64,000 bases of DNA from a virus (Duplodnaviria > Heunggongvirae > Uroviricota > Caudoviricetes). Shown here one piece after another: positions 9,385 to 40,160 of this stretch; the stretch's first letter is position 1; each line of letters begins with the position of its first letter. A program made the translations under genes and the position numbers. Under the pieces are notes generated by a model. The model saw only the letters and a list, made by a program, of their open reading frames with translations. It was not told where the DNA came from and searched no databases. Location: the IMG/VR virus record IMGVR_UViG_3300032893_000003, positions 78,633-142,632 of that record, one strand, 5' to 3'.

Positions 9385-9406
9385 ATATCTAAAACAAAAC
9401 CTCCTT

Positions 9407-9484
9407 TGGTGTCGGGGGTGGGATTTGAACCCACAGCTTTACGGCTCTTAAGGCCGTTGCGTATGCCAATTCCGCCACCCCGAC
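9407..9484 (-). tRNA. tRNA-Leu-like (anticodon UAA) with an atypically short variable arm
   Basis: The reverse complement GTCGGGGTGGCGGAATTGGCATACGCAACGGCCTTAAGAGCCGTAAAGCTGTGGGTTCAAATCCCACCCCCGACACCA has a Leu-type D-arm (TGGCGGAATTGG) and an A73 discriminator. The loop is CUUAAGA. The variable region is only about 5 nt, so it is not the type II arm expected for Leu. Confidence 0.5.
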
Positions 9485-9485
9485 A

Positions 9486-9568
9486 TGGTGCCCTCAGGGA
9501 GAGTCGAACTCCCACGCTTGCGCGATCGCTTCTAAGGCGATTGTGTCTGCCAGTTCCACCACAAGGGC
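9486..9568 (-). tRNA. tRNA-Leu (anticodon UAG), type II
   Basis: The reverse complement GCCCTTGTGGTGGAACTGGCAGACACAATCGCCTTAGAAGCGATCGCGCAAGCGTGGGAGTTCGACTCTCCCTGAGGGCACCA has loop CUUAGAA and a 12-nt variable arm. Confidence 0.75.
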
Positions 9569-18265: not shown

Positions 18266-18607
18266 TTAAGCGTCGCATACGAGAACCTTGTTATGATGCA
18301 GGTATTTGCCCACTCTCTTGAGTTTATCTGCGCGAAACTTGGTGACGTTTCGTATTGTCACATCACCAGCCTGAATGAGCAGCGCGAGGGCTGCCGATAC
18401 GTCGCCAAGCTCTTTTTCCAGATTCTCTTTATTGGTTGTCGGGTCTTTCTTACGATCAAACGGATGGCAAGATTCGTATCCATGTCGTAAGATCTTTCCA
18501 ATAATTTGTTGGACCTCAGCACACTCCTCCATTAAGAGTGCCAGCCTCTCGGCTTCGGCCGGTGTCAGTTTGTTGAAATGTACGTTATTCATATAGTCTC
18601 CTTTCAA
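18266..18607 (-). CDS. MazG-like nucleotide pyrophosphohydrolase (paralog 1)
   Basis: Contains the EExxE motif (ERLALLMEECAE), the E..D motif (ELGDV) and the shared block GKILRHGY. It is a paralog of the 44906-45238 gene. Confidence 0.65.
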   Translation of the reverse strand: MKGDYMNNVHFNKLTPAEAERLALLMEECAEVQQIIGKILRHGYESCHPFDRKKDPTTNKENLEKELGDVSAALALLIQAGDVTIRNVTKFRADKLKRVGKYLHHNKVLVCDA

Positions 18608-19134
18608 TTTCGACCAACGATGAGCTTTCTAAGCTCCTGCTGGCTATAGTCAAATTGCATATAAATCTCGGTTGTCGTTAGCCACCTATGCCCGAGCGCC
18701 CGTTGGACGAGTCTGATGTCCTTTGTGCGTTTATAAAGCCTAATAGCAAAGGTATGTCTCAGGCAATGAAGTCCTTTGTGCGCCGGACGGTATTCAACCC
18801 AAATCTGCCGAAACCTGTTGTACGTAATTGGAAAAATGAACTTCGATGCAGGCTGCACTTCAGTCATCACCCGACGAAATAGCCACTTAGGTATCGGGAT
18901 ATCCCGATCGCAACCCTCTTTCAAACCACTAACGTAAACAGATAGGTTTTTGTTATCAAGATCCTGGGGCTTAAGGTTTAAGAGTTCCTGTGCCCGAGCG
19001 CCTGTGTGCATGGCTAGCCACAGCAGCGTACAGTTCCTAGGATCTTTGTGTTTAAACTTTTCTAGGATCTGCTCGAGGTGGGCATACTCCTCGTCTGAGA
19101 GGAACTTGTGCTTTGTTAGTTTATAGCGCGCCAC
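18604..19134 (-). CDS. tyrosine recombinase (phage integrase family), catalytic domain only
   Basis: 176 aa containing the full catalytic set: TGARAQEL (Arg), HCLRHTFA (H-x-x-R), LGHRW (His) and TTTEIYMQF (Tyr). There is no N-terminal DNA-binding domain. Confidence 0.7.
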   Translation of the reverse strand: MARYKLTKHKFLSDEEYAHLEQILEKFKHKDPRNCTLLWLAMHTGARAQELLNLKPQDLDNKNLSVYVSGLKEGCDRDIPIPKWLFRRVMTEVQPASKFIFPITYNRFRQIWVEYRPAHKGLHCLRHTFAIRLYKRTKDIRLVQRALGHRWLTTTEIYMQFDYSQQELRKLIVGRN

Positions 19135-23350: not shown

Positions 23351-24331
23351 TCATGTCGATGTGCCATTGTTCTCCCTATACCATTTAATTGTTTCAGCCA
23401 ACCCAGTCCCGACACTTACCCTCGGCGTATATCCGAGGGAGGCCTTAGCACGTTCGATGTCCGCACGAGAACATGGAATGTCTCCCTTACGCCAGTCTGC
23501 GCACTGCATATACTTTGTCGGAAGTGGAAGCCCCTGGTTACAAAATTCCTTAAGAATTTTTAGAGAAAGCTCATCAAGCGTCATATCGCTGCCCATACCG
23601 ATGTTATAGACCTTACCTCCGACAACATCTTTATCAGCGGTAGCCGCCGCAAGAATGGCATCAACAGCATTGTCTACGTAACAAAAATCTCTGGTTATTC
23701 CGGCACTTCCATACAGAATGCAGGGCTTTAGCTCCAAAAGAGATGTTATCCAGTTAGGGATAACAGCCGCATAGCCGCCCGTTGATTGCTGCCTCGGACC
23801 AAAAATATTAAAAAACCTTAAGCCCACCGCCGAAAGTCCAAGCGAGTGATGATACGACTCAGCTACGATCTCGTTTATTCTCTTAGAAGTTGCGTAAGGC
23901 GACAGGGGCTTGCCAATGATGCTCTCGGTTTTAGACGCGGACAGGTCATCGCCGTAAACAGCACTTGAAGAGGCATAGATAAATTTCTTTACGCTAGTGC
24001 CTCGTGCAGCATCGATGACGTTGTTAAAGCCGGTCACATTGTTCTCAAAGGTATCGCCGGGTTCCTCTATAGAGCGAACTACGCTGCATTTGGCAGCCAA
24101 GTGAACAACGACATCTACCTCTTTTGACAGATAGTTGCAAAGCAGCCGATCGCGAATGTCTCCGGCGTGAAGACTGAAATCTTTGCTTTTAAGCGCCCCA
24201 TAAAGGTTCCGACAGTTTCCGTTAGCCGAATGGTTGTCGAGTCCAATTACGCGCTTGCCCGCGGCCAAAAGACGATCCACCAGATGAGAGCCTATGAAGC
24301 CCGCGGCACCAGTGACAAGCCAACGATCCAT
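23351..24331 (-). CDS. NAD-dependent sugar-nucleotide epimerase/dehydratase (extended SDR)
   Basis: 326 aa with GAAGFIGSHLVDRLL (Rossmann fold), YASSSAVYGD and YATSKRINE (YxxxK). Confidence 0.85.
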   Translation of the reverse strand: MDRWLVTGAAGFIGSHLVDRLLAAGKRVIGLDNHSANGNCRNLYGALKSKDFSLHAGDIRDRLLCNYLSKEVDVVVHLAAKCSVVRSIEEPGDTFENNVTGFNNVIDAARGTSVKKFIYASSSAVYGDDLSASKTESIIGKPLSPYATSKRINEIVAESYHHSLGLSAVGLRFFNIFGPRQQSTGGYAAVIPNWITSLLELKPCILYGSAGITRDFCYVDNAVDAILAAATADKDVVGGKVYNIGMGSDMTLDELSLKILKEFCNQGLPLPTKYMQCADWRKGDIPCSRADIERAKASLGYTPRVSVGTGLAETIKWYRENNGTST

Positions 24332-24966: not shown

Positions 24967-25416
24967 TTATTTACTTATACCGGCTTTCTCGATCTTTTTA
25001 AGCATCGCGTGCGCTATTTCAGACCCTCTACTGTCCTGGATATCTTTGAAAGCCTTAGCAGACTCCCGCAATAGATCCATAAGTTGCGCCCTGTCGGCCT
25101 GGACGTCTCTAAAGTTAGCCTCGATGGTTGATCGGCCGGCAAGAGCTTTTCGCAGTAGAGAATTTTCTTCCTCAAGCGCATTAAAGGAGTCTTGATCCAC
25201 TAGATAGATCTCAGCTCCGTCTTTTATAGCGTCAATCTGCCACCATTCAGGACTATCGGGCGAGAGCTCGCCCGTTGTCCATTCGTGTATTTCAACAGGG
25301 TTGCCACACATTAAAAATTTTCTCATTTCACCTTCCTCCTCATAAAGATCACAAGCCGGACAAGTGTTTGAAAGCCCCATTTTCTGCCAATCTAGGCAGC
25401 GGTCGCATTCTGTCAT
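24967..25416 (-). CDS. zinc-ribbon protein
   Basis: 149 aa with CDRC...CPAC. Confidence 0.45.
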   Translation of the reverse strand: MTECDRCLDWQKMGLSNTCPACDLYEEEGEMRKFLMCGNPVEIHEWTTGELSPDSPEWWQIDAIKDGAEIYLVDQDSFNALEEENSLLRKALAGRSTIEANFRDVQADRAQLMDLLRESAKAFKDIQDSRGSEIAHAMLKKIEKAGISK

Positions 25417-25712
25417 GCTTTAACTCCTAGCTTGCGCTCAAACGCAACCATGGCATTTCGCAAAGACAGATCTATACCGTCTTCATCATATATTTTCAGC
25501 GATCTATAGAGCGCTGTCACTTCGGGAGGAGGATTCCTCCGAACCCAGTTGATATAATCAACTGCCTGGTATTCGTGCTTGATGTTAGGAAACGTATCCC
25601 TCAGCTTTTGCTGCCATTTATCTTCAGTTATCGTCTCACACGTCGGCTCGTGTGCATTCAGCTCTATAGGCTCGTCAGAGAATTTTCCACAATAAAGACA
25701 CTGATATTTCAC
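25413..25712 (-). CDS. small protein, paralog family member 1 (C2H2-like finger plus the RRNPPPE and FERK.G motifs)
   Basis: 99 aa with CLYCGKFSDEPIELNAHEPTC ... WVRRNPPPE ... FERKLGV. Confidence 0.5.
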   Translation of the reverse strand: MKYQCLYCGKFSDEPIELNAHEPTCETITEDKWQQKLRDTFPNIKHEYQAVDYINWVRRNPPPEVTALYRSLKIYDEDGIDLSLRNAMVAFERKLGVKA

Positions 25713-25972
25713 GGGGCACCTCTGCCGCTTTTACGCTCGAATTCGGCGAGGGCTTCCATTGCCCATTTAGCGTTATGGGTTGGATATATATCCGATCCGT
25801 GCACTTTGTGTTCTTTTGCAACAATACGAAGCGCCTCAACCAGCGCCAGCGTCTCCGGCGGCGGGTTCTTGCGGACCCATTCCGCCATATCCTTGCAATA
25901 TGGAGCATGGGCCCCACAGATTAAATGAGCCTTTGCATTCATAGCCTTCTGCCATTCTTCTTCAGAAATCAT
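25709..25972 (-). CDS. small protein, paralog family member 2
   Basis: 87 aa with WVRKNPPPE ... FERKSG; ATGA coupling with both neighbours. Confidence 0.5.
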   Translation of the reverse strand: MISEEEWQKAMNAKAHLICGAHAPYCKDMAEWVRKNPPPETLALVEALRIVAKEHKVHGSDIYPTHNAKWAMEALAEFERKSGRGAP

Positions 25973-26304
25973 ACTTTTACTCCCGTCTTGCGCTCGAATT
26001 CCGCAAGCTTCGCAATTAACAGATCCCAGTTCTCGTACGATTCGTGATCTCTGTACTTTTTCAGTGCTTCCACTAGCTCCTTTATTTCAGGAGGTGGATT
26101 CCTCCGCATCCAGGCAATGATCTTACTAGGGGTAGTGAAGTGCCCTTCAAATTTACCGTTCTCATCATACGGGCTATTGCAGTATTCGTAGATCTTTTTC
26201 TGATATGCCTCTTCAACCCCGCACATAACATCGCAAGTCGCCATGTGCGCAATCCGCGCCATAGGCTCATCAAACTCTTTTCCGCAGTTGCATAAGTAGC
26301 TCAT
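25969..26304 (-). CDS. small protein, paralog family member 3
   Basis: 111 aa with CNCGKEFDEPMARIAHMATC ... WMRRNPPPE ... FERKTGV. Confidence 0.5.
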   Translation of the reverse strand: MSYLCNCGKEFDEPMARIAHMATCDVMCGVEEAYQKKIYEYCNSPYDENGKFEGHFTTPSKIIAWMRRNPPPEIKELVEALKKYRDHESYENWDLLIAKLAEFERKTGVKV

Positions 26305-26445
26305 GGCTTCACTTCCTTTTCTACAAAACAGCCGCTAACAAACCTGATCTGACACCAACGGCAAAACACAAACCGGTGCTCGTGCCCATCTGGTGCCTGA
26401 TCATACCCATGCCAATATTCGTGGAATCCGAAATGGCATTTAATC

Positions 26446-26793
26446 CTACGTAACAGCTTTTTCACTACTCGCCTCCTTAAGAACCTGCTCTCCTAACTTG
26501 ACCGTGTGCCTAGCCATATCGAGTTCATATTGCTGTGTACGGTGTAGCTTCGACACGGACTCAATAGCTTCAAGTTTTGCTACAAGCTTACGCGCAGCTT
26601 CTAAGGCATACCTGATAGCAGCTAATTTCTCTTCACGTGTGCTCATCTTTTTCCCCTCGTAAAATTTTCCGTATTCGTTTAGCCTCTCGCCTCGCCCAAT
26701 CGAAATCCTCTTGGGTCCAATATTCACGGCGCTCAGCTTTCTTTTGCTTTCGCTCAAGTTCTTCAGTAGATTGCTTGTCGACAAGGCGGTCAT
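26446..26793 (-). CDS. hypothetical coiled-coil protein
   Basis: 115-aa ORF. Confidence 0.4.
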   Translation of the reverse strand: MTALSTSNLLKNLSESKRKLSAVNIGPKRISIGRGERLNEYGKFYEGKKMSTREEKLAAIRYALEAARKLVAKLEAIESVSKLHRTQQYELDMARHTVKLGEQVLKEASSEKAVT

Positions 26794-27005
26794 GAAGTGA
26801 TTTCATGTCCAGGACATCCCGTCTCATAGCTAAAACCCTCGCACTCGCCAATGGGAATTAGCCGCTTACCTTCCCTTACATATTGTCGGAAAATCGACTT
26901 GCATTCCTCAACTGAAATCCCATTCTCTTTGGCAACGGATTTCCATTCTCGCGATTTCCAGTTTTTTAAAGCTCTCTCAACGGATTGGCAGAGATGATAT
27001 TTCAT
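26790..27005 (-). CDS. hypothetical protein
   Basis: 71-aa ORF. Confidence 0.4.
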   Translation of the reverse strand: MKYHLCQSVERALKNWKSREWKSVAKENGISVEECKSIFRQYVREGKRLIPIGECEGFSYETGCPGHEITS

Positions 27006-27253
27006 TCCGCCTCCTCCGCAAATTTAAGAAGTGCCCTCGCCAGTCTCCGTGCTTGTGCCTTCGATAAATGAGCCGTAGCGCTTATGTATTGCCCAGTCGC
27101 TTTATCAAACACGCCGTCGTTGCCGTCTTTGTCTTTTACAAACACCCAGCAGCGCGGAGCGCAGGCGCTAGAAGACATCTGCACTCGAATCGTGTTTTTA
27201 TACGTATCCTTAAACTCCGAGTAGATCGGAAAACCTCTGTTTGTCTTCTTCAT
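27002..27253 (-). CDS. hypothetical protein
   Basis: 83-aa ORF. Confidence 0.4.
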   Translation of the reverse strand: MKKTNRGFPIYSEFKDTYKNTIRVQMSSSACAPRCWVFVKDKDGNDGVFDKATGQYISATAHLSKAQARRLARALLKFAEEAE

Positions 27254-27486
27254 AGATACCCAAGCCTTTCAGCGCCTTTTTCCTTAAGCTCTTGTCGTAC
27301 AATCCTAGTCGGCGTGACGATGTGGAAACAACAAGTGTCTTCGCCTTTACCACGAACCATAAAGCCCATCTTTCTAAGTACTCTCTTAGGCACGTTCATC
27401 TCGATCTCGGTACGAAGTCCAACTTCAGTAATGGGGCGCATAACCATAAGATCTTCGCAAAATAACCAAACTTCAGGGCGCATCAT
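27250..27486 (-). CDS. hypothetical protein
   Basis: 78-aa ORF. Confidence 0.4.
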   Translation of the reverse strand: MMRPEVWLFCEDLMVMRPITEVGLRTEIEMNVPKRVLRKMGFMVRGKGEDTCCFHIVTPTRIVRQELKEKGAERLGYL

Positions 27487-27718
27487 TAATTACCTCCTCA
27501 GCGGGTTTTCTTTGCAGCGTATCAGTAAGTTTCTTATGTAAAGTCACTTCGAGAACTTCTTTCAAGTACGAAAGATCCTCGACAGCGCCGGCATTTAAAA
27601 AGATTCCCTGCCCTGTCTTATCAATGCCCAAGATGATGACGGCTGTCCCGCCCTCTAAGCGATCTACGTATCCGTGAAGGGTCTTTATGGATTCTGGTCC
27701 TATAATTGTTTGGCTCAT
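27473..27718 (-). CDS. hypothetical protein
   Basis: 81-aa ORF. Confidence 0.4.
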   Translation of the reverse strand: MSQTIIGPESIKTLHGYVDRLEGGTAVIILGIDKTGQGIFLNAGAVEDLSYLKEVLEVTLHKKLTDTLQRKPAEEVINDAP

Positions 27719-27735
27719 TTTTTCTCCTTTATGGT

Positions 27736-28506
27736 TTATAGTTTTAAATAACTCAAAGTCATCCCCGCATCTCGCTTTGACCTGTTGTAGTACCTAAAAC
27801 AGCTATCGTGCCAATGAGTACTCGGGTCTGTAACCTTCATCGGAATGTAGTTGTCAAAATACTCAGGCGGCGCTTGCATCAATACTTTCTTAGTTTGAAC
27901 GCGCGGATAACATGCAGCAATCCATGACGGACCGCTGTCCGGACCGATAAAAACACTTGCCTGTGCAATGAGTCCAACTAGACGCCAGACGTCGTCAGTT
28001 TTCCCCCTAAGATCCGCAGCACCAGGGACTGGAACATCGTCTTTTCCGCCAACTTGGATCATGGCATAGCCGTGATATTTTAGCTTAATGTGACGAATGA
28101 TTTCTTCGTTTAGAATCATCGCCTGATCGTACCCGCGCCAAGTATGAACAGCTTGAGTACCTGTCGTGTGCACGATGACGGTGCCGGATGATTCGCACTC
28201 CTCAAACTTATAAAGCCGCGGGTGCGCAAGGCTCACAGGCACACTAAGCATTAAGGCGTTTCGTTCAGCCAGGCTCGTGTAGATAGGACGACCTGGGTAC
28301 TTGATCTTATCTAGCGGGAACTTCCATAGATTTATAATCTCCTTAGGCTGTTCATTGCGAACAACATAAGGGTTGTGATCAAAGACCCACGCTTTATCTA
28401 CGTCGATCAGTTTTTTACCCGTTGCTTTAAAATAGTTCTCGGGCATTGATGTGAACTGGATCATGTCGCCGATGCCCGGGGCACCTTCAAGGGAAATTCC
28501 TAACAT
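27736..28506 (-). CDS. glycosyltransferase family 9 (heptosyltransferase)-like protein
   Basis: 256 aa. The C-terminal GGKDDVPVPGAADLRGKTDDVWRLVGLIAQASVFIGPDSGPSWIAA matches the GT9 motif (DL.GKT.L..L..LI..A.L.IGNDSGP.HLAAA). The N-terminus carries GIGDMIQF. Confidence 0.6.
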   Translation of the reverse strand: MLGISLEGAPGIGDMIQFTSMPENYFKATGKKLIDVDKAWVFDHNPYVVRNEQPKEIINLWKFPLDKIKYPGRPIYTSLAERNALMLSVPVSLAHPRLYKFEECESSGTVIVHTTGTQAVHTWRGYDQAMILNEEIIRHIKLKYHGYAMIQVGGKDDVPVPGAADLRGKTDDVWRLVGLIAQASVFIGPDSGPSWIAACYPRVQTKKVLMQAPPEYFDNYIPMKVTDPSTHWHDSCFRYYNRSKRDAGMTLSYLKL

Positions 28507-28509
28507 AAG

Positions 28510-28746
28510 CTACTCCAGACGCTTGCCGTCTTCGGGATTAACTTTTGCGGTTCCGATGGCTTTAGTTAGCCTAGCTAACCCCAATAAACGGGGATCATTA
28601 AAGTCCTCTAAGAGACCTACAGCTAGGTCTTTCATTGTGTTGAAGCCTACTAAATAGGCTTCTTCAACAGCTATTGTCTCGGTACCTTTAGGAATTACCG
28701 TCCAATTCTGGGCGTACTTGCGGGCTAAGTATTCGCAGGCTTTCAT
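28510..28746 (-). CDS. hypothetical protein
   Basis: 78-aa ORF lying between the nucleotidyltransferase-like and GT9-like genes. Confidence 0.45.
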   Translation of the reverse strand: MKACEYLARKYAQNWTVIPKGTETIAVEEAYLVGFNTMKDLAVGLLEDFNDPRLLGLARLTKAIGTAKVNPEDGKRLE

Positions 28747-28765
28747 ATAAATCTCCCTTATTTAC

Positions 28766-29203
28766 TTATACCTGAGTTTTCGGACCAATGGTCTTGGTCT
28801 CGAAGTCGCGGATAATAAGCTGTCTGAGGCGACTCGACGATACCGGATGCAGCCGCTCACAGTAGTGAATCTGAATGTCCTCTATATCCTTGCCGGTAAA
28901 AGGCTTATCTTCGTAATCAGATCCCAAGAAGCGGACAGCTGGCATGATGAGTAAAAGTAAATTTTTCAAGTCTTCTTCCGTTTCGTAAGGGATAACTTCG
29001 TCAACATAGCGACAAGCTTTAAGAGACAAATATCTTTCAGCCGCTGATTGAACGGGCTTATTCTTGCTAGGGCGCTCACGGCTAGGATCCACATGAAGAG
29101 CTGCGATTAAGTAGTCGCAATTTTCCTTGGCTTCTTTGAGCATTACGATGTGGCCGGCGTGTGGTCCTAGATCAAAGCATGAGGCGACAAATCCGATTTT
29201 CAT
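28766..29203 (-). CDS. cytidylyltransferase-like (H/T)xGH nucleotidyltransferase (TagD/HldE-domain-II-like; an NMN adenylyltransferase function is not excluded)
   Basis: 145 aa with the N-terminal GFVASCFDLGPHAGHIVMLKEA (FD...H.GH) and RYVDEVIP (compare TagD IRYVDEVIPE). Confidence 0.7.
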   Translation of the reverse strand: MKIGFVASCFDLGPHAGHIVMLKEAKENCDYLIAALHVDPSRERPSKNKPVQSAAERYLSLKACRYVDEVIPYETEEDLKNLLLLIMPAVRFLGSDYEDKPFTGKDIEDIQIHYCERLHPVSSSRLRQLIIRDFETKTIGPKTQV

Positions 29204-29379
29204 TTCGTAGCCTCCTTAACTTTTAAAGCCTCTTCAAGCTCCTGTATGCGAAGTTTTTGCTCCGTTCCTTTGCGGATAAGATGCTCGACTAAGTCTGCTA
29301 TAACGTGAAGCTGTTTGTCTGCCTGAGCGCGCAAGTAATCTGGCGCATAATATATCTGTGGTTGTGTCTCTGTTTCCAT
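29200..29379 (-). CDS. hypothetical coiled-coil protein
   Basis: The tool ORF 29200-29481 overlaps the TerC gene and a terminator. The in-frame ATG at 29379 (METETQ...) has a GGAG RBS and lies downstream of the terminator. Confidence 0.45.
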   Translation of the reverse strand: METETQPQIYYAPDYLRAQADKQLHVIADLVEHLIRKGTEQKLRIQELEEALKVKEATK

Positions 29380-29392
29380 AAATCTCCAAAAT

Positions 29393-29421
29393 AAAAAAAG
29401 GCGCGCCGTATTAGGGCGCGC
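29393..29421 (-). terminator. rho-independent terminator downstream of the TerC-like gene
   Basis: The stem GCGCGCC/GGCGCGC (7 bp) with a 7-nt loop is followed on the minus strand by TTTTTTT. Confidence 0.6.
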
Positions 29422-29426
29422 ATGGT

Positions 29427-30080
29427 TTAGGTAGAAACCTTTGCACTTACTTTTTTTGTAAATCCGTATCCAAAGCAGCATAAAAGAAAGGCATAAAAAG
29501 CTATCTCTGGAACTTTAAAATCAGTCAGACCTTCAATAAAGATCCGAACACCCGCGATAGTGATGAGCAAATAAGCCGCATCCTCAAGTCGCGGAAACGT
29601 CTGCATAAGGGTTGCAAAAAACCCTGCCGCAAGACGCATGGCGATGATACCGACGCAACCGCCTGCCACCATGATCCAATACACATCTGTTACAGTAACA
29701 GATGCGAGAACTGAATCAGCACTAAAAGCAATGTCAGTGATCTCAACCATGAAGACGATCTTCCAGAAATGAGCCGATACCGCTTTGGTATCGGCTTCAT
29801 CCCCCTCTGAGTCATCTCCCCAGACAAAATACTTAACTGCTAAATAAAGTAGGTAGGCAGCGCCGGCAAATCTCAGCCATTGATAGGTCAAAATTTGTTG
29901 CAGGAAGAAAAGAGCAATGATCCTAAAACCAACCGCTCCCCAAATACCATAGGTCAACGCCTTGCCGCGCCGACCACTTGGCAGATGTTTTACAATGCCC
30001 GCAATTGCAAGTGCGTTGTCCATCGACAAAGCCACTTCCAAGAACACAAGTAGTAACACCATAAAAAGCTGAGATGCCAT
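29427..30080 (-). CDS. TerC-family integral membrane protein
   Basis: 217 aa, multi-TM, with LEVALSMDNALAIAGIV matching the TerC family motif. ATG start with RBS AAGGAG. Confidence 0.7.
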   Translation of the reverse strand: MASQLFMVLLLVFLEVALSMDNALAIAGIVKHLPSGRRGKALTYGIWGAVGFRIIALFFLQQILTYQWLRFAGAAYLLYLAVKYFVWGDDSEGDEADTKAVSAHFWKIVFMVEITDIAFSADSVLASVTVTDVYWIMVAGGCVGIIAMRLAAGFFATLMQTFPRLEDAAYLLITIAGVRIFIEGLTDFKVPEIAFYAFLLCCFGYGFTKKVSAKVST

Positions 30081-30212
30081 TTGCTATTCTCCTTTTAAAC
30101 TTGTTTCGATGTCCTTCTCAACGCGCTTCTTCCAAAAAAGAAGCGCGTCTTTGAACCGGACAACGAACAGGGTACCAACGACCCCAACCGCTAATCCGAA
30201 AGTAAACATGAC

Positions 30213-30890
30213 TTATTCGTCCAGCGCTGCGATCATCGCGTCAATGAGAGTGACGTTTTCCAGATCATCGACGGTTTTAGCGTTCACGATGTCGAACTTC
30301 GCCCCTTCTTTTTCCAGATGGTCGTCAAGGCGCTTTAAATAAGCAGCGGCCTTGGCGCACTTGCCAACCTGAAGGAAAGAAATCCCAGCCTCATCGTCAT
30401 GGTCAAGTTGCTTTGTGAACTTAACGATTGACGATGCTACTGCATCTTCATTATCCGGCTCACCATCGGTGACACAGACAATCATGATGCCGTTTGGCTT
30501 GGCATTCTTGGCTTTTTTGTTAGCGACATAATCGTCGAAGCAGACTTGAAGCGCTGCTGCGAGATTCGTGCTTCCTGCTGGCCAGTTTTCCGCAAACACA
30601 TCCTTCACCTTGTCGGGTGTGGTGTTCGGGTACATTTTAGCCTGGCTAGAGAAGGGAACTACGGTGATGCCGTCGGGATCGAATTCGTTCAGCTTTTTAG
30701 CCAAAGCGATCGTCGATTCCTGGCAGTAGTCCCAACGAGACTTCCCGTTAGCCGTATCGGCCTCCTCCATCGAGCCCGACTTATCGATAACTACATAGTA
30801 GTCACGATTTTGCAGACGCGCGACGGCAGCTGCCTTTGCTGCGGCAGCTGCGCTTACCGGCGCTGTCGGCTGTTGTTGTGTTGTGTCCAT
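30213..30890 (-). CDS. von Willebrand factor A (vWA) domain protein, TerY-like
   Basis: Contains the MIDAS motif VVIDKSGSM followed by a vWA-like topology (VCVTDGEPD). The tool start at 30929 is TTG; the ATG at 30890 has a GGAG RBS. Confidence 0.7.
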   Translation of the reverse strand: MDTTQQQPTAPVSAAAAAKAAAVARLQNRDYYVVIDKSGSMEEADTANGKSRWDYCQESTIALAKKLNEFDPDGITVVPFSSQAKMYPNTTPDKVKDVFAENWPAGSTNLAAALQVCFDDYVANKKAKNAKPNGIMIVCVTDGEPDNEDAVASSIVKFTKQLDHDDEAGISFLQVGKCAKAAAYLKRLDDHLEKEGAKFDIVNAKTVDDLENVTLIDAMIAALDE

Positions 30891-31077
30891 TTGTGTCTCC
30901 TTTGTTATGGGTTGATGGACTTCGTTCAAATCTCTTCGTAAATATTTTCAAAACCGTGTGGTTCTCTTGTTATCTCAATAAAGACATCGCCGTACTTTGT
31001 CTTTATCTTCCACATATCCCACTGATCAAGCTCCTTCGTCACGTACCAACGAAGGAGCTTTTTAAATAACCAGAACT

Positions 31078-31572
31078 TCATTTGGTGTTCTCGTGAGGAC
31101 TGGGATCGACTACATTTAACTTAGCAAAATCACCAAATCTCTCTTTAGCGATTTTGTTATAAGCTAGTGCGGCCTCCTCTTCTGTATGGAAGCGGCCAAT
31201 AGTCGTATTTTTTCCAGATTCTTCGATGCCAGCTAGCCACCGCTTCCTGCGTTTGCCGTTACGGTCAAAACGAACGCCTTTGTATTTGCTTACAGTACCG
31301 GGCTGCTTCCTACTGTTTCTGACATTCTCTCTAGCGGTGCATATCCGTAGGTTAATACGTCGGTTGTCTAAAGGATTTCCGTTTATGTGGTCGACAGTCA
31401 TGCCTTTAGGACATTTAGTAATAATCCTGTGAAGAAACTCCCGAACACCATCAATCGTAACTCTAACGTAGCCGTCGTGTCGAACGTACAGGGACAATTC
31501 TTTAAATCTTTCGTAAAACTCAGCATCTACTATGACATAAGACGCTGAGTTTGCTGCTTTTAGTTTTCTCAT
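31078..31572 (-). CDS. HNH homing endonuclease with an AP2 DNA-binding domain
   Basis: Contains VDHINGNPLDNRRINLRICTARENVRN (HNH) and YKGVRFDRNGKRRKRWLAGIEESGKNTTIGRFHTEEEAALAYN (AP2). Confidence 0.75.
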   Translation of the reverse strand: MRKLKAANSASYVIVDAEFYERFKELSLYVRHDGYVRVTIDGVREFLHRIITKCPKGMTVDHINGNPLDNRRINLRICTARENVRNSRKQPGTVSKYKGVRFDRNGKRRKRWLAGIEESGKNTTIGRFHTEEEAALAYNKIAKERFGDFAKLNVVDPSPHENTK

Positions 31573-32393
31573 TTTGCCACTTTATCTAAGTTAAACAGAA
31601 ATCCATTCCCGCTACCGCCCACCACAGCAGGGGTGTGACCGTCCCACTTCTGCAGTGCTTCGTACTGCAGAAGTTGGGGCGTGATGCTGTTATTCTTCAG
31701 TCTGTTAGCCTCTGCTTCACCGCGAGCGACCGCAATCGCTTTCTCAGCCTGAGCTCTAGCTTGTGCTACCTCGTTTTCAAGTTGCAAAGCTTTCTGCGTT
31801 GCTTGGATCTTGGCGTTTAAAGAATCTTGCACAGCCTCGGGCAGGCGCATAGCGCCGACACTTGCGATGCTGATAACATGGATGCCGATCGGGTCTATTT
31901 GTGCGTTAACCGCTGCCGTTACTTTTGATAACAAATCACCCTTCTGCGATCCATAGATGTCTTCAACCTTCATCGTTCCGCCAATCGCGCTAAAAGCATT
32001 CCTCACCATATTGCGTAAAACAACGTTAGTGATTTCATCGATGCCTTTGCGATAAGTTGTAAAGATGTGCGCAACCTTCGCAGGGTCAATAATGTAGGAA
32101 ATGGCGATGTCAGTGTTTATCTGAAGACCGTCCTTATCCTGAAACGTCATGGATTCATCATGAGGAGAACCTTCATGAGGCGAAGCAGTCCAGACCCAGT
32201 TCTGCTGAAACGTTGGAAAGGTATAGAGGTCCACCGTCGGGGGAAGCCAGTAGTAGCCAACGCCCACAACCTCGCTATCAACCCCTTTTGAGCCACCCAT
32301 TGTATGGACCTTGACTCCCACATAACCTGCCGGAACTTTTGAGCATCCACAGGTACTAAGCAGCAGGCCTAGTAGGACCATTATCTTTTTCAT
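31569..32393 (-). CDS. SPFH/Band-7 (stomatin/flotillin-like) lipoprotein
   Basis: A lipobox signal MKKIMVLLGLLLSTCGCS is followed by the SPFH core and a coiled-coil tail (AQARAQAEKAIAVARGEAEANRL). Confidence 0.75.
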   Translation of the reverse strand: MKKIMVLLGLLLSTCGCSKVPAGYVGVKVHTMGGSKGVDSEVVGVGYYWLPPTVDLYTFPTFQQNWVWTASPHEGSPHDESMTFQDKDGLQINTDIAISYIIDPAKVAHIFTTYRKGIDEITNVVLRNMVRNAFSAIGGTMKVEDIYGSQKGDLLSKVTAAVNAQIDPIGIHVISIASVGAMRLPEAVQDSLNAKIQATQKALQLENEVAQARAQAEKAIAVARGEAEANRLKNNSITPQLLQYEALQKWDGHTPAVVGGSGNGFLFNLDKVAK

Positions 32394-32607
32394 TTGAATC
32401 TCCTTTGTTGTTTGGCTTATCGCAGCCAGTTATCTTTTTAACCATGAATCGCGTCATGAAATAAAATGTCGCGATAAAAATGGCATAGACAAGAATCAGG
32501 GCAATGTCGCTATCTTCGTCGAAGACAGCTGGCACTACCCACGCATAGAGAACCCAAGCGCCGACCGCGCTTAGGAAAATTGTGTCGAATATTTTTAACG
32601 CTTTCAT
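32356..32607 (-). CDS. small 2-TM membrane protein, NfeD-like partner candidate of the SPFH protein
   Basis: 83 aa with an ATG start and GGAGG RBS. It overlaps the SPFH start by 38 nt, a gene order typical of NfeD-SPFH operons. Confidence 0.4.
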   Translation of the reverse strand: MKALKIFDTIFLSAVGAWVLYAWVVPAVFDEDSDIALILVYAIFIATFYFMTRFMVKKITGCDKPNNKGDSNEKDNGPTRPAA

Positions 32608-32615
32608 CAGTCCTC

Positions 32616-34376
32616 CTAAATACTATTAATCACAAGTTCACTCAACGAACTATCAACCTTAGCCACAAAAATCTGTACGTCTTTCGGAAGCAGATCCACA
32701 TATTTGTCTACGAGGTCAGCATTATCAAAAAACATCCAGCTTGGCGGCTGCTTTGAAGCTTTACGCAAACTTTGGCAGAAAGCTAGGTCTACCTTCATGC
32801 GTCGACCGGAAGATAAACTTGGATAGAGGATGCCGCTACTTTTAACAGTTAACTCCCCGTCCTGAAATTCGACAACAACGCCAGGGACTTGTAAGGTCTC
32901 AAGCAGTGTCTTAGTTTCGATTTCTGGTAGCTTACGCAAAGCATTTTCAAGCTGTGCGCAGGAATCAACGTAGTGCTTCAACTCTAAATTAGACTTGGTT
33001 AGTAGCGCCTCTTGTGCCTTAAGATGCTCGAGCTGAGTTTCATGCCTTTTAACAGCATTGATATCGGTACTAAGCTCTAACTGTTCTTTTTGGAGTTCAG
33101 AGCGGTCGGTTGTAGGTTTTGATGGAGCCTGGGGCTTACTCGGGTTCATGGCTTTAAGCTTCTCATCGAACTCGTCCATTAGCTTATAAGTCCGCTCGTT
33201 CTCGCGTTCAATCTCGTTGATGCGCGCAACAGCTTTCCGATGGCTTTCCTCAAGCTTACTGATGGCCTCTTTTTGCGCTAAGATGTTTTCGTTAAGGGAG
33301 CGATTGTGCTTCTCAACAGCGCTTGCCTCTTTGTTGTATTCTGTAAGCATACGCTCGTATGCCTCCATGATCCGATTCAGATGGCTGCCGTCGATTTTCT
33401 GTCCACACTTGTCGCACTCAGCGCCTTCCTGAAGAGAAGCACCAGTTGGCTTCTTTGGAGCATTCGGAGGTGTCCTGAACTTTTGCTCAAGGGCGGCGAT
33501 CGTCTTGTTGAGATCAGCGATCTCCGTGTCAATAGTTTGAGTGTGCGTCTCCAGCTTATCCACTTCGTCAGTGGGTAGTATCTTCAGCTTTTGACGTTCT
33601 TTGCGATATTCCGCAAGCCTAGCTTCCTGACTTTCCCATCGCGCCAAGTCCCCGTTATATTTAGCAAGTATCTTGTCGTAGGTCGTATGCTCCTCAAGAG
33701 CCGCGTTAACTTCGTTAAGGCGAGCCTGGAAAGATTCTACATCTGCCACCGCAGCGCCAGCTAGTTGCTGTAACTGAGTGACAACGACCTTTAAAGCGCC
33801 CTCATTACTCGCCATCTTGTTTTGGGCTTGTCTTCTATCGCCCGCTATAGCGTCTGCATCAATCCTTGGATTTGTGAGCTTCACTTTAGCTGGAACCTGA
33901 AAACCCTGCGGCAATTGACCCATAAGAAGCGCGCGCCTATCTAATTGCGCAAGCTCTGCCATAACGGCTAATTTCTTCTCAGTCTTAAGTTCCATGAAGT
34001 AGCCAACATTCCAGCAGCTCATAAAGGCTTCAAGACTTGATTTCAAAAGGTTTTGCAGATCTGTCTGAGACATCGGAACCGGAGGCAAGTTCTGGCGGGC
34101 GAGCTTTAAAGCGCTCGTGGCTCCGCGGCGTTTCTTACGCATAATGGTAGACTTAGGTGTCGCGATTGCGACTTCCATCTCTTCGGCACCCTCAGTAATC
34201 AAATGATCTGGATTCTTTGTGCCCACTGCGTCTGTACCAAACCATGCAAAGGCTATCGCTTCTTTAATCGTGCTCTTACCGCATTCATTAGGACCGCGAA
34301 GGATGTTGATCCCAGGGAAGAATGAAAGTTCCCTTGTATGCCCTCTAAAGTTCACTAAACTGATTTTTCCGATCAT
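32616..34376 (-). CDS. Rad50/SbcC/T4-gp46-like SMC-type ATPase
   Basis: Carries Walker A GPNECGKSTIKEAIAFAWFG (compare T4 gp46 GRNGGGKSTMLEAITFGLFG), a long coiled-coil, the signature-like SSGRRMKVDLAFC and the Walker B MFFDNAD. The tool start at 34484 is GTG; I used the ATG at 34376 with a GGAGA RBS. Confidence 0.75.
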   Translation of the reverse strand: MIGKISLVNFRGHTRELSFFPGINILRGPNECGKSTIKEAIAFAWFGTDAVGTKNPDHLITEGAEEMEVAIATPKSTIMRKKRRGATSALKLARQNLPPVPMSQTDLQNLLKSSLEAFMSCWNVGYFMELKTEKKLAVMAELAQLDRRALLMGQLPQGFQVPAKVKLTNPRIDADAIAGDRRQAQNKMASNEGALKVVVTQLQQLAGAAVADVESFQARLNEVNAALEEHTTYDKILAKYNGDLARWESQEARLAEYRKERQKLKILPTDEVDKLETHTQTIDTEIADLNKTIAALEQKFRTPPNAPKKPTGASLQEGAECDKCGQKIDGSHLNRIMEAYERMLTEYNKEASAVEKHNRSLNENILAQKEAISKLEESHRKAVARINEIERENERTYKLMDEFDEKLKAMNPSKPQAPSKPTTDRSELQKEQLELSTDINAVKRHETQLEHLKAQEALLTKSNLELKHYVDSCAQLENALRKLPEIETKTLLETLQVPGVVVEFQDGELTVKSSGILYPSLSSGRRMKVDLAFCQSLRKASKQPPSWMFFDNADLVDKYVDLLPKDVQIFVAKVDSSLSELVINSI

Positions 34377-34839
34377 AGGTGAGTCTCCATTTGTTAAATA
34401 AATCTTTAGCGTTTGTCGCAACACAGAGTGGGCACTTTGGACTATCAAATGAATGCCATTCTTTGCCGACCATAAACTCTGCACCGCAATTATTGCACTT
34501 ATATCCTAGACCAGCCCATTTATGCCTCCAGCCCGCCGCCTGCCAATAGAGCAGTCTAAAGCCAGTAAGAAGGAGCCGAACCGCATGAACTAGCTGCGAG
34601 TTCTCGTGTCTTAAAGTTCCAATTTCATCTGTCATACGTTTTTGCACATGATGAAGTTTTTTAGTCTTCATAATACGCGCTTCAAGGTCAGCCACGCCCT
34701 GTTCCCGATCCAGTAAGTTTAGGACAAACTCGAAGTCATCCAACATTGGATTGGGAATAGGGACCGCTCTGACCCTTTGAAATTCAACCTTAATGGCATC
34801 AAGCCTGTCGCGCTCCTCTTTGGTCATTAATGGACCCAC
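34345..34839 (-). CDS. hypothetical protein with a C-terminal zinc-ribbon
   Basis: 164 aa with CNNCG...CPLC. Confidence 0.5.
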   Translation of the reverse strand: MGPLMTKEERDRLDAIKVEFQRVRAVPIPNPMLDDFEFVLNLLDREQGVADLEARIMKTKKLHHVQKRMTDEIGTLRHENSQLVHAVRLLLTGFRLLYWQAAGWRHKWAGLGYKCNNCGAEFMVGKEWHSFDSPKCPLCVATNAKDLFNKWRLTYDRKNQFSEL

Positions 34840-35438
34840 CGCCCCAAATAATCAAACATACTTTTTTGCTTCTCAGCAAAGTTGTGCTGTAAGAGAGCTA
34901 CAGAGTGATGAAGGGCGTCAGGAATCCCCATCGTCGTATTTTCGACATTTGCTATAGAGCAGCCGCGATCCGCGATGAGAGCTGTGCATGCGTCAAAAAT
35001 AACATAAGTCTGTTCGGAAAACTTCAGGTCCTTGTATTTAAGATCAGAAAAAAAGATATCGCGCGCTTGAGAGAAAACCTCCTGCAAATTTTTAGATGCT
35101 TCGAGTATTTCTTTATGCCGCTTTTCTGTCATCTCTTCGCTTTTAATGGGACCCGCGGGTGCCGCGGCACCTAAGACTTCCATAACGCTTTCTTTAGGCT
35201 TTTCCATGTTAGACCCCCCAGTCTGTGCCCCAGCTGTTTCTTGTAACGAAAGCCTGGATTGCATCTCTTTCACGTGTTGAATGGCACGTGCATAGTTGTG
35301 ACTCAGGTATCGAACCTGTGCTTTCAGGTCTTCGATCTCTTTGTCGGTTGCAGCTTCCGATGAAGCTGGTAAAGATCTCGTTTTTGCGGGCTGGGGAAGA
35401 AGCCATTGCATAAGCCATTGCTTGATCCGATTCATCAT
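34827..35438 (-). CDS. hypothetical protein
   Basis: 203-aa ORF. Confidence 0.5.
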   Translation of the reverse strand: MMNRIKQWLMQWLLPQPAKTRSLPASSEAATDKEIEDLKAQVRYLSHNYARAIQHVKEMQSRLSLQETAGAQTGGSNMEKPKESVMEVLGAAAPAGPIKSEEMTEKRHKEILEASKNLQEVFSQARDIFFSDLKYKDLKFSEQTYVIFDACTALIADRGCSIANVENTTMGIPDALHHSVALLQHNFAEKQKSMFDYLGRWVH

Positions 35439-38936: not shown

Positions 38937-39173
38937 ATGATGACTAACTCTATTCAATACAAGAAGCCTTTGTTGAAGCAGGGCGGCATTATATCCACCC
39001 AAGCAGATGGCGTAGTGTGTCTAGATATGTCTGGGACAATGTCCTACATGATCGACACGTCGGACGACAACGGGCAAGTTTGCTACTTCCAAAATCCCGG
39101 GGTCGGCGAAGACACAACTATGACCACGCTGTATGCCCAAGCAAAGGCGGCTTATCCAGCGTTATTTATTTAA
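38937..39173 (+). CDS. hypothetical small protein
   Basis: The RBS GCGGAGGTG sits 6 nt before ATGATG. The tool ORF 38919-39173 is in the same frame. Confidence 0.45.
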   Translation: MMTNSIQYKKPLLKQGGIISTQADGVVCLDMSGTMSYMIDTSDDNGQVCYFQNPGVGEDTTMTTLYAQAKAAYPALFI

Positions 39174-40148
39174 TAACGAATTGGGGTAAATGCTAAGATC
39201 CCTAACGCGGTTATCCGCTTCGCGCCTTATTCCCTTAAAAATTTTATTCAGATAACTGTCAGTCGCCTGTTTAAGAGAATAATAGGTACGGTGAGTTCTG
39301 TCTGAATAAAGCTGCCAGTTATTAAAAACAAGTGAGAGCTTTGCGTAAAGCTCTCTGGCATCAATCCCGCATCCAAGACGTAAGAGCTCAAGCCCGTATT
39401 TATCGTTGTCGTCCATGAGAGGGTTTGCGCGTACCAGCCCATCATTAGCGGGAGAGTAGATCGCAGGAATCCCCCGGGCCCAGGCTTCTTGAATGGTGTT
39501 TGAATAGCACTCAATATGTGAGAGGTGGATAACGACTGAGCAACGCCCCAGAATCTGTAAGAAGTCTTTGTGCTCTTGATTTGTAAAGGCAGGTGCTATG
39601 ATCTCGCAGTTTTTATGCGAAGCCGCAAAATCTCTAGCTACCTCAATAGCGCCATAAGTATTTTTAAAGACATTGTTTGTCCCGCCAAAAATCCCAATTA
39701 CAAATTTATCATCCTTTTTCTTCTGCGGCTGGACGGCAAAAGCGTGGGGAACAAAGATAGCCGGAATTTTCTTAATGTCGTTAAAATATCTCACAGTCGG
39801 CGGGTGCACAAAGCCTATGAGATCCGTTCCGCCAAGCGATTTTGTATCTAAAAATTGTTGCCAATAAATCTCATCGCAGAACATATTCCCATGAAAAGCA
39901 GTACTATGGTAAACGCTTAAGACAGGGAATTTTCGTTCGATTTTTAATTTAAGTAAAAGCTCTTTATAGCCCTTACTCCAGCCCCCAACAACGAGGATGT
40001 CGGGGTCGAGCGCCAAAAGAGTACGAACGTACTGAATAGTAGCCCCAGGATGCTCGATGTGAGGAAGGGGATAATACTCCGTGCACGTTGCCCGCGTGGC
40101 AATGGAAACGCCTTTAAAATTGGGGTTGGAAATGCCGAGAACCTTCAC
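39162..40148 (-). CDS. glycosyltransferase family 4 (GT-B fold)
   Basis: 328 aa with a C-terminal EX7E-type motif (ECYSNTIQEAWARGIPAIYS). The start is GTG with an AGGAG RBS. Confidence 0.7.
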   Translation of the reverse strand: MKVLGISNPNFKGVSIATRATCTEYYPLPHIEHPGATIQYVRTLLALDPDILVVGGWSKGYKELLLKLKIERKFPVLSVYHSTAFHGNMFCDEIYWQQFLDTKSLGGTDLIGFVHPPTVRYFNDIKKIPAIFVPHAFAVQPQKKKDDKFVIGIFGGTNNVFKNTYGAIEVARDFAASHKNCEIIAPAFTNQEHKDFLQILGRCSVVIHLSHIECYSNTIQEAWARGIPAIYSPANDGLVRANPLMDDNDKYGLELLRLGCGIDARELYAKLSLVFNNWQLYSDRTHRTYYSLKQATDSYLNKIFKGIRREADNRVRDLSIYPNSLLNK

Positions 40149-40160
40149 ACTCTATATCTC

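Follow-up and report, generated by a model that had tools for sequence, protein, structure and literature searches.

TerC, vWA, nucleotidyltransferase and GT9-like genes of a tailed-phage genome are split over two accessory cassettes

Abbreviated Ter operons have been described on jumbo phages, for which a role in superinfection exclusion was proposed (Iyer et al., 2021; PMC7824862). A second described system is formed by MeeY (YkoY) and MeeF of Bacillus subtilis, which act in Mn efflux and in the metalation of exported enzymes and were co-purified with SecDF, FtsH, and the flotillins FloA and FloT, which are SPFH proteins (PMC10550928). Phage-borne Ter genes and GT9 genes have both been previously reported or annotated. 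Here, a stretch of 64,000 nt (hereinafter referred to as the window) was analyzed, which derives from an uncultured tailed phage of roughly 175 kb. A sequence-only reading had described genes for a TerC membrane protein, a TerY-like vWA protein, an HxGH nucleotidyltransferase and a GT9-like transferase in one co-directional stretch, with the first two recalling the ter neighborhoods of bacteria. All four genes are real, but they are split over two separate accessory units. Both kinds of cassette were already known in outline, with putative functions.

All genes under study were located on the minus strand, at the positions assigned to them in that reading. Cassette A extends from 32607 to 29401 and encodes, in this order, an 83-aa membrane protein, an SPFH lipoprotein, the vWA protein, a 41-aa membrane peptide, and TerC, with an HNH-AP2 insertion ahead of the vWA gene; cassette B extends from 29379 to 27736. 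Because all non-nested ORFs of at least 120 aa between position 1 and ~41,100 share the minus strand, co-directionality was uninformative. Right after TerC, a strong intrinsic terminator was predicted at 29401..29421 (minus strand; GCGCGCC-CTAATAC-GGCGCGC, followed by CTTTTTTTAT). It was the first-listed site of the terminator scan and the sole site with 7/7 G-C pairs. When the 93 nt 3' of the TerC stop were folded, the hairpin was part of the minimum-free-energy structure (-17.7 kcal/mol for these 93 nt as a whole). The nucleotidyltransferase and GT9 families were absent from every vWA or TerC locus fetched, and vWA and TerC were absent from every GT9-like locus fetched. Given the predicted terminator and the independent distribution of the two halves, the four genes do not form one unit.

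A single ter-like unit, in which TerC, the TerY-like vWA, the nucleotidyltransferase and GT9 cooperate and the nucleotidyltransferase supplies a Ter stress system with its nucleotide-like signal or sugar, is therefore very unlikely, with the predicted terminator, the non-overlapping content of the two sets of loci and the strand common to all genes over 41 kb speaking against it. The adjacency and common direction of the four genes would favor it, as would the reported occurrence of nucleotide or nucleoside biosynthesis enzymes with Ter systems (PMC7824862) and the position of a phosphoribosyltransferase-like gene and NAMPT beside the vWA-TerC pair of locus L011. It is further weakened by searches against Pfam, PHROGs, and NCBIfam, in which no TerD-family (TerZ/A/D/E/F), TerB, or TelA gene was found among the 11 ORFs of 27736-32607 or among ~27 other window ORFs scanned. 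Cassette A is therefore Ter-like and not a ter system, and the assignment to a ter neighborhood was not upheld.

Cassette A has in common with Ter systems, including the abbreviated operons of jumbo phages, a TerC-family protein paired with a TerY/TerF/copine-type vWA on a large phage, and with the jumbo-phage operons also a proposed role at the membrane against incoming phages (PMC7824862). Unlike Ter systems, it lacks, besides the TerD family, TerB, and TelA, the phosphoribosyltransferase/HAD signal enzymes and the TerY-P kinase/phosphatase; its TerC belongs to the YkoY/MeeY (Mn) subfamily, and in place of the missing proteins its partners are an SPFH protein and the 41-aa membrane peptide. 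The view that Ter-like modules are unusual on phages was correct for cultured phages, in which they are rare, but such modules have been described for jumbo phages (PMC7824862) and the vWA family, with >5,000 relatives, is abundant in metagenomic phage contigs. Phages of ~171 kb carried TerC without vWA.

The TerC gene (29427..30080, minus strand) encodes a 217-aa membrane protein, and its family assignment was confirmed by PF03741 (E 7.6e-46; 156.5 bits, gathering score 27.8) and by the NCBIfam YkoY subfamily model TIGR03716 (206.6 bits, cutoff 138.5). Both intramembrane acidic motifs (xSxDN and xxxDS), which we take to be the hallmark of the TerC family, were present in the translation as LSMDNA and FSADSV (EVALSMDNALAIA and DIAFSADSVLAS). 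Control by a yybP-ykoY riboswitch is typical of cellular ykoY and is not defining for the protein. In 26000-35000, Rfam gave no match at E<=1 to this Mn riboswitch or to any other RNA, apart from one sub-threshold sRNA hit. The window TerC is like B. subtilis MeeY (YkoY)/MeeF in its NCBIfam subfamily and its two acidic motifs, and the SPFH gene nearby matches the co-purification of MeeF/MeeY with FloA/FloT (PMC10550928). Unlike MeeY/MeeF, it is phage-borne, shorter, and without a Mn riboswitch, and it shows translational coupling with a micropeptide and a vWA protein, partners that are missing from the Bacillus proteins.

The vWA gene (30213..30890, minus strand), whose ATG is preceded by an AAGGAG ribosome-binding site, encodes a 225-aa cytoplasmic protein with no signal peptide (VWA_2, E 1.6e-8). 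The MIDAS recognized in the sequence-only reading was found to be complete (DxSxS, T, D; residues D36, S38, S40, T108, and D142) and invariant across 35 relatives. The fold is of the copine/TerF type; against vWA-TerF-like (PF10138), the window protein scored 21.2 bits, under the gathering score of 29.4, and 22 of the 35 relatives were matched at E<=0.01 (best 1.1e-6). The phage vWA family was matched by no PADLOC model, with E 0.0044 for the TerY model. It differs from the copine-type vWA domains of BON1 and RGLG2 in being a stand-alone protein without C2 or RING domains and in its distribution, which comprises bacterial viruses and cyanobacteria. Anantharaman et al. in 2012 reportedly defined the TerY-P triad by a neighboring PP2C phosphatase and Ser/Thr kinase; neither these partners nor a TerD fusion was found in cassette A by Pfam, PHROGs, and NCBIfam searches, nor did any of them appear in loci L011-L015, as judged from gene calls and Pfam matches. 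Chromosomal vWA homologues of cyanobacteria had neither the peptide nor TerC nearby, and the vWA is therefore independent of both.

Between vWA and TerC, a 41-aa single-pass membrane peptide is encoded (30084..30209, minus strand), with basic residues C-terminal to the helix in a basic/amphipathic tail that ends in LKGE. Its start follows the vWA stop after 3 nt, and the TerC start follows its own stop after another 3 nt. A counterpart of 51% identity was found in a related 139-kb phage contig (L012). The SPFH/Band 7 protein has a signal/lipobox-like N-terminus (31569..32393, minus strand; Band_7, E 2e-28; PHROG 200 'lipoprotein', E 7e-74) and was found in 592 phage records; in L012 and L013, its gene is immediately upstream of vWA. 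The first gene of cassette A (32356..32607, minus strand) encodes the 83-aa two-helix membrane protein, an ORF with no family match, and a 37%-identical ORF lies immediately 5' of the SPFH gene in L012. The insertion that separates SPFH from vWA is an HNH-AP2 homing-endonuclease-like gene (31078..31572, minus strand; HNH_3, E 1e-10; AP2, E 1.1e-6; PHROG 99, E 1.7e-39); it was missing at the equivalent position in L012, where SPFH abuts vWA. A 51-aa ORF with no assigned function (30926..31081, minus strand) has its homologue (57% identity) elsewhere in L012, at 12626-12772, and is therefore not a fixed part of cassette A.

The vWA-peptide-TerC membrane cassette recurs in many phages. Among the 40 IMG/VR viral vWA loci assessable for the downstream gene, a short membrane peptide (39-66 aa) was directly 3' of vWA in 25 and TerC, on the same strand, in five, so that one or the other followed vWA in 30 loci; no membrane gene followed it in the remaining 10. 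The peptides fell into two subtypes with a common architecture and little sequence likeness. In L012 the order was Band_7-vWA-43aa-TerC, and the vWA-TerC pair was also present in L011, L016, L019, L020, L021, and L049. A further 24 contigs were common to the top-120 TerC and top-120 vWA homologue lists. The adjacency of vWA and TerC exceeds chance; for comparison, just 17 of the 50,697 phage records deposited contain TerC. Each of the two was also found alone.

Cassette A likely encodes a cation-linked membrane complex on the cytoplasmic face, serving superinfection exclusion or metal handling. The peptide would insert into the inner membrane, leaving its basic tail on the cytoplasmic side, and dock the vWA protein at this membrane. 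The metal site of the vWA protein may bind a partner adjacent to TerC; TerC would export Mn2+ or a similar divalent cation, and the SPFH protein may act as a scaffold for this assembly. By analogy with jumbo-phage Ter, the pay-off would most likely be an altered envelope or metal state of the infected cell that blocks rival phages (superinfection exclusion), with metal supply to exported proteins as a close second. The set may also be purely auxiliary to metal handling and take no part in phage-phage conflict, which we consider possible but rather improbable. TerC would then be a MeeY-like Mn2+ exporter and metallochaperone at the Sec translocon, supplying metal to exported proteins of the phage or the host or shielding the cytoplasm from Mn during infection, with the SPFH protein organizing the site and the vWA sensing or buffering the cation. 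This is in accordance with the YkoY subfamily score above the curated cutoff, the activities and the SecDF/FtsH/flotillin association of MeeY/MeeF (PMC10550928), the conservation of SPFH beside the vWA-TerC pair in L012, the invariant MIDAS, and a Metallophos gene two genes 3' of TerC in L011. However, neither the yybP-ykoY riboswitch nor another Mn sensor was found upstream, no exported enzyme using Mn was recognized in the window, and TerC is absent from most vWA cassettes, so that the core activity must be something other than metal export. In addition, the vWA cassette was found in accessory regions of temperate-looking phages, adjoining a Tad2-like anti-defense gene.

Cassette B begins with a 59-aa ORF (METETQ...; 29200..29379, minus strand; no Pfam/PHROG match), which has a GGAG 6 nt 5' of its ATG at 29379 and a stop overlapping the start of the nucleotidyltransferase gene (ATGA); a longer version of 93 aa was not called by the gene caller. 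The nucleotidyltransferase (28766..29203, minus strand; 145 aa) was verified as an HxGH enzyme of the TagD/ECT/HldE-domain-II class by its HAGH motif at residues 14-17 and by matches to CTP_transf_like (PF01467; E 3e-12; 47.3 bits, gathering score 21) and PHROG 7878 (E 9e-33). Its motif, fold, and size are like those of HldE domain II/HldC and the TagD-ECT cytidylyltransferases (~130-145 residues), and its C-terminal half resembles HldE domain II. Unlike these, it belongs to the phage family PHROG 7878 and reached about a third of either equivalog cutoff, far under both: the best NCBIfam match was rfaE_dom_II (E 1.9e-16; 60.2 bits, cutoff 181.5), and TagD gave E 6e-13 (49 bits, cutoff 165.4). 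Matches in the PDB comprised only ECT, GCT, CCT, HldC, and a Thermoplasma LPS-core protein, together with marginal pantothenate synthetase and GalT1; by sequence, ECT (E 8.9e-18) and TagD (E 1.2e-10) were best and HldC reached only 0.029.

The order of these PDB matches would fit a glycerol-3-phosphate, phosphoethanolamine, or phosphocholine cytidylyltransferase that makes a CDP-alcohol and is unrelated to the GT9-like neighbor, which would use host ADP-heptose or another donor. The 106 phage records that contain PHROG 7878 relatives annotate them in various ways, many as TagD, and enzymes of the window type rarely adjoin GT9-like genes. We hold this to be a minority possibility, as NCBIfam favors rfaE_dom_II over TagD and only 19 nt, in which no terminator was found, separate the gene from the orf78-GT9 pair. 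In Synechococcus phages, moreover, the window-type gene is immediately 5' of annotated dTDP-glucose 4,6-dehydratase and NAD-dependent epimerase genes (with a 3,5-epimerase annotated between them in phage S-H68), and such enzymes act on NDP-sugars, not on CDP-alcohols. NMN, also named earlier as a candidate substrate, found no support: no similarity to NMNAT, NadD, NadR, or NadM was detected (NCBIfam, E<=0.01; PDB, E<=10). It is accordingly highly improbable that the enzyme is the missing NMN adenylyltransferase of a phage NAD salvage route completing NAMPT (PHROG 448, E 7e-188) and the PRPP-synthetase-like gene at 2649-5225, although the HxGH fold is common to NMNATs and no NMNAT was seen among the 38 window ORFs scanned; NAMPT is 24 kb away, and the relatives are found in sugar-nucleotide gene blocks.

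The small ORF noted earlier between the nucleotidyltransferase and GT9-like genes was present (orf78; 78 aa, 28510..28746, minus strand); it stops 3 nt short of the GT9-like gene, has no assigned function and no Pfam/PHROG/NCBIfam match, and no homologue of it occurred in any locus fetched. The last gene (27736..28506, minus strand) encodes a 256-aa compact protein predicted to be a GT-B glycosyltransferase of GT9 (heptosyltransferase)-like type. The HMM searches that had been suggested as a check supported PF03741, vWA, and CTP_transf_like, but for this protein neither Glyco_transf_9 (PF01075) nor any other Pfam, PHROG, or NCBIfam model gave a match. A confident structural model had strong matches only to GT9 heptosyltransferases, and among known structures its GT-B fold comes nearest to those of GT9. 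P0493, a distant family member matched by the family profile at E 3.9e-14, scored 28.2 bits against Pfam Glyco_transf_9 (gathering score 22), and PF01075 was the sole match in eight of 10 distant or fused members; canonical GT9 was not reached within the 228 hits of the family profile. The GT9 identity thus holds only at the level of the predicted fold and through a transitive sequence link. Compared with the GT9 enzymes WaaC/WaaF and the autotransporter heptosyltransferase TibC (PMC4358343), the protein is ~70-150 residues shorter, shows no iron-finger cysteine set where it aligns to TibC, and belongs to a separate family that comprises just 228 clusters, with many relatives inside phage baseplate modules (~21 loci, beside the E217_GP41 hub and DUF2612).

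The probable role of cassette B is to form a nucleotide-sugar and to transfer it. The nucleotidyltransferase would make an NDP- or ADP-sugar, most likely a heptose-like one, and the GT9-like enzyme would move the sugar to an acceptor, which may be a glycan of the host envelope or tail proteins of the virion. The earlier suggestion of an activation-and-transfer pair is plausible in the light of 9-10 phage loci of one clade of distant relatives, in which the GT9-like gene is directly followed by genes for a cupin, a kinase resembling rfaE_dom_I (E 8.4e-28), and an adenylyltransferase resembling rfaE_dom_II (E 1.6e-39). However, the two families are not regular neighbors, as a relative of the window's own nucleotidyltransferase occurred in only one of 54 GT9-like loci. 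A heptose kinase and a cupin were absent from the window.

We lean slightly towards the two-cassette explanation as a whole, including the membrane role of cassette A and the glycan role of cassette B. More tentatively, the vWA protein and its ~40-aa membrane peptide, with or without TerC and SPFH, may represent an undescribed and very widespread phage membrane system that has a conserved and as yet unexplored counterpart on the chromosomes of cyanobacteria. In this system, a copine-like MIDAS protein, tethered to the inner membrane by the micropeptide, would gate or partner a divalent-cation exporter and thereby exclude superinfecting phages or disarm a membrane-based host defense.

The sequence-only reading had grouped genes for a TerC protein, a TerY-like vWA protein, a nucleotidyltransferase and a GT9-like transferase as one unit, which was not borne out: a predicted terminator follows TerC, and the two halves are distributed separately. 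The genes for the vWA protein (30213-30890; 225 aa), a 41-aa peptide and TerC (29427-30080; 217 aa) were spaced by 3 nt between neighbours. Directly 3' of the TerC stop, a GC-perfect 7-bp hairpin (29401-29421) was followed by CTTTTTTTAT; this predicted terminator headed the list of terminator-like sites in 27000-35000 and was the only one with an all-G-C stem. A short ORF with its own GGAG started at 29379, and its stop overlapped the start of the nucleotidyltransferase gene (28766-29203), which was followed after 19 nt by orf78 (28510-28746) and, after a further 3 nt, by the GT9-like gene (27736-28506). Given the hairpin and the fresh ORF with its own GGAG, two transcription units are predicted. 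Distributions elsewhere were consistent with this division: the nucleotidyltransferase and the GT9 family were absent from all fetched vWA/TerC loci, and vWA and TerC were absent from all GT9-like loci. Shared orientation was uninformative, since every non-nested ORF of at least 120 aa from position 1 to approximately 41,100 of the window lies on the minus strand.

The identities proposed for the two Ter-like proteins held. TerC matched PF03741 (E 7.6e-46) and scored 206.6 bits for the YkoY subfamily, above its curated cutoff of 138.5. The vWA gene starts with an ATG at 30890, preceded by an AAGGAG site, and its product, whose N-terminus is not hydrophobic, matched VWA_2 (E 1.6e-8), with a vWA-TerF-like match below threshold. 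Its MIDAS residues did not vary across 35 relatives.

The vWA protein is among the better-conserved accessory proteins of this analysis. A total of 5,263 relatives were found at E<=0.001, the closest listed being 50-86% identical, and many were on contigs of 35-47 kb. One such contig carried P22-type portal, coat and terminase genes together with an integrase, and a Tad2-like gene adjoined vWA. Among 50,697 deposited phage records, a vWA match occurred in just one. To describe its partners, genes downstream of vWA were counted in 42 IMG/VR loci from an alignment-based vWA scan; a scan of IMG/VR with a single TerC protein as query found nothing. A membrane peptide of 39-66 aa was encoded downstream in 25 of the 42 loci, mostly starting within approximately 50 nt, and TerC in five; ten had neither, and two were cut by the contig end. 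The peptides were of two sequence types with one architecture, namely an N-terminal helix, basic residues and an amphipathic tail. By the positive-inside rule, the peptide tail would lie in the cytoplasm, as would the vWA protein.

Peptide and TerC were both present in the window and in L012, a related 139-kb phage contig, where the region directly upstream also encoded an SPFH protein and a protein homologous to the 83-aa membrane protein. The window carries an HNH-AP2 homing-endonuclease-like gene between the SPFH and vWA genes (31078-31572, minus strand); it is missing at that position in L012, and so probably entered the membrane cassette by recent insertion. When the top 120 TerC and top 120 vWA homologues were compared, 25 had the same size of longest contig, giving 24 further contigs with both genes. 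TerC without vWA occurred in phages of approximately 171 kb, and 17 deposited phages, chiefly Bacillus phages, carried TerC. A 622-aa SMC/Rad50-like ATPase (AAA_23) is encoded directly upstream of the cassette (32616-34484, minus strand). It resembles Lamassu LmuB (PADLOC E 5.5e-23) and has a 47%-identical counterpart 6 kb away in L012; it was judged not to be part of the cassette.

The best 80 of 577 genomic vWA relatives were all cyanobacterial and chromosomal, with approximately 50% identity, and came from Nostocales, Oscillatoriales, Microcystis and others. They occurred in one to three tandem copies, with a conserved coiled-coil protein encoded downstream in 63 of about 80 loci. In many loci, an upstream ORF resembling NdhN and nearby ribosomal-protein genes were read from translations. 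TerC, SPFH and the peptide were not found near vWA in any of these best 80 loci, so the vWA protein exists independently of TerC. These homologues are apparently uncharacterised, and their neighbourhoods say little about function or host.

The membrane cassette is not a ter system. It had no TerD, TerB, TelA or TerY-P partners; the Mn riboswitch yybP-ykoY was absent, and PADLOC returned no defence-system match for the cassette proteins except for a negligible TerY match. In Bacillus subtilis, YkoY/MeeY has Mn efflux activity and aids metalation of exported enzymes; SecDF, FtsH and two SPFH proteins, the flotillins FloA and FloT, co-purify with it (PMC10550928). The pairing of SPFH and TerC in the window parallels this co-purification, which argues that the pairing is meaningful. 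We therefore envisage a MIDAS vWA protein that would be docked by the micropeptide at the cytoplasmic face of the membrane and would work with a divalent-cation exporter, TerC, with SPFH possibly scaffolding the complex of all three. Metal handling, as in B. subtilis, is a close rival for the role of the cassette. Superinfection exclusion appears the likelier benefit, given that the core of the cassette mostly occurs without TerC and amid accessory genes of temperate-looking phages. Iyer et al. found the Ter components TerD, TerC, TerF and TelA on jumbo phages and proposed that they counter superinfecting phages, the vWA protein building sub-membrane structures and TerC altering transport (PMC7824862). 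Literature searches on phage vWA proteins and superinfection exclusion found nothing relevant.

In the second unit, the 145-aa nucleotidyltransferase was confirmed by its HAGH motif and a CTP_transf_like match (E 3e-12). The top NCBIfam matches were HldE domain II and TagD, each at about one third of the cutoff. PDB matches came mainly from cytidylyltransferases for ethanolamine, glycerol or choline phosphate, from HldC and from a Thermoplasma LPS-core protein; pantothenate synthetase and a GalT1 glycosyltransferase matched marginally. NMN, one of the substrates suggested earlier, found no support: the NCBIfam (E<=0.01) and PDB searches returned no NMNAT match, in the PDB not even at E<=10, and this identity was rejected. 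The window-type enzyme was present in 106 deposited phages. In Synechococcus phages it directly precedes an annotated dTDP-glucose 4,6-dehydratase and NAD-dependent epimerases, and in S-H68 an annotated 3,5-epimerase lies between the dehydratase and epimerase genes. With such neighbours, activation of a sugar-1-phosphate fits better than CDP-glycerol synthesis.

The 256-aa transferase had no direct match in Pfam, PHROGs or NCBIfam. A model built from 43 relatives was very confident (pLDDT 96.7), and matches in a viral structure library were proteins of uncultured phages that already bore the names RfaF, GT9 or Aah/TibC. The family profile matched a single PDB sequence, TibC, over the DSGPSWIA motif. 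Among 1.84 billion representatives it retrieved only 228 clusters, indicating a small, discrete family, and canonical GT9 was not reached directly. The sole Pfam match among distant members was Glyco_transf_9, with one above threshold, a transitive link. At the level of fold, the GT9 assignment holds.

In bacteria, the family was located within polysaccharide-type clusters. Its phage neighbourhoods were compared by clustering the neighbours in 54 IMG/VR loci. In approximately 21, on phage contigs of 40-45 kb, the gene lay inside a baseplate module (for example, L142, 2366-4167), with hub/wedge-like genes, including the hub E217_GP41, upstream and genes for a DUF2612 protein and a fibre-like one downstream, which suggests tail-protein glycosylation or a structural role. 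In 9-10 more distant loci it was followed by genes for a cupin, a kinase resembling rfaE_dom_I (E 8.4e-28) and an adenylyltransferase resembling rfaE_dom_II (E 1.6e-39), neighbours that make a heptose-like ADP-sugar a plausible donor for the family; the kinase and cupin were not found in the window. A relative of the window's nucleotidyltransferase was detected in only one of the 54 loci, as a weak tblastn match. Linkage of the two enzymes across loci is hence at class level, through divergent HldE-type genes, and their putative pairing in the window reflects proximity and class resemblance only. The acceptor could be either a tail protein of the virion or a glycan of the envelope. Other sugar and nucleotide genes, dispersed within the same minus-strand block, encode a GT21/GT2-type glycosyltransferase (12287-13423), a TviC/WbpP-like UDP-sugar 4-epimerase (23351-24331; E 2.5e-74) and a nucleoside 2-deoxyribosyltransferase-like protein (7201-7686).

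The source is a large uncultured tailed phage, the window being part of a 175,168-base contig. Megablast of 27000-33000 against deposited phages gave no match, and the best relative of a window helicase among them was 27% identical; no cultured relative was therefore of help. NAMPT, an endolysin, helicases and many small ORFs are also encoded. NAMPT (PHROG 448, E 7e-188) adjoins a PRPP-synthetase-like gene (2649-5225, minus strand), and the two make up a phage NAD-salvage pair; the window ORFs scanned included no NMNAT. The same pair lies directly upstream of vWA-TerC in another locus (L011, 7396-9653). Seven tRNAs were identified on the minus strand, six in a cluster (9016-9568) and one with anticodon CUA (858-931; amber suppressor, labelled Pyl by ARAGORN), together with a full tmRNA (10437-10861, minus strand; Rfam RF00023, 106 bits) with the tag peptide GDNVVHVDFGRKAAVARAA. 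At 39162-41123 (minus strand), ORFs of 320 and 328 aa share a frame and are separated by one TAG and four codons, the sole such pair within the window; neither had a PHROG match. Because a CUA-anticodon tRNA is present, the pair could yield a 654-aa read-through product. Three tandem paralogous small ORFs of 99, 87 and 111 aa (25413-26304, minus strand) share the motif W-x-R-[RK]-N-P-P-P-E and have overlapping start and stop codons. A short 176-aa ORF of the tyrosine-recombinase/integrase family (18604-19134, minus strand; E 1.1e-19) occurs in this otherwise lytic-looking phage.

Earlier reports or annotations exist for Ter genes and for GT9 genes on phages. Literature searches found no description of the vWA-micropeptide-TerC(YkoY)-SPFH arrangement and its breadth or of the baseplate-embedded GT9-like family, and nothing specific on phage GT9. 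The present value lies in sharply testable hypotheses, none of them established. A vWA protein tied to a micropeptide or TerC offers a small clonable system with which to probe the role of TerC/vWA pairs, and could also be used to ask whether infecting phages manipulate divalent-cation export or membrane microdomains. Some GT9-like genes occur in baseplate modules and others next to genes for heptose activation, which suggests that phages carry out heptose-type glycosylation, possibly with tail proteins as targets; if true, this would bear on receptor binding and on immune recognition of virions.
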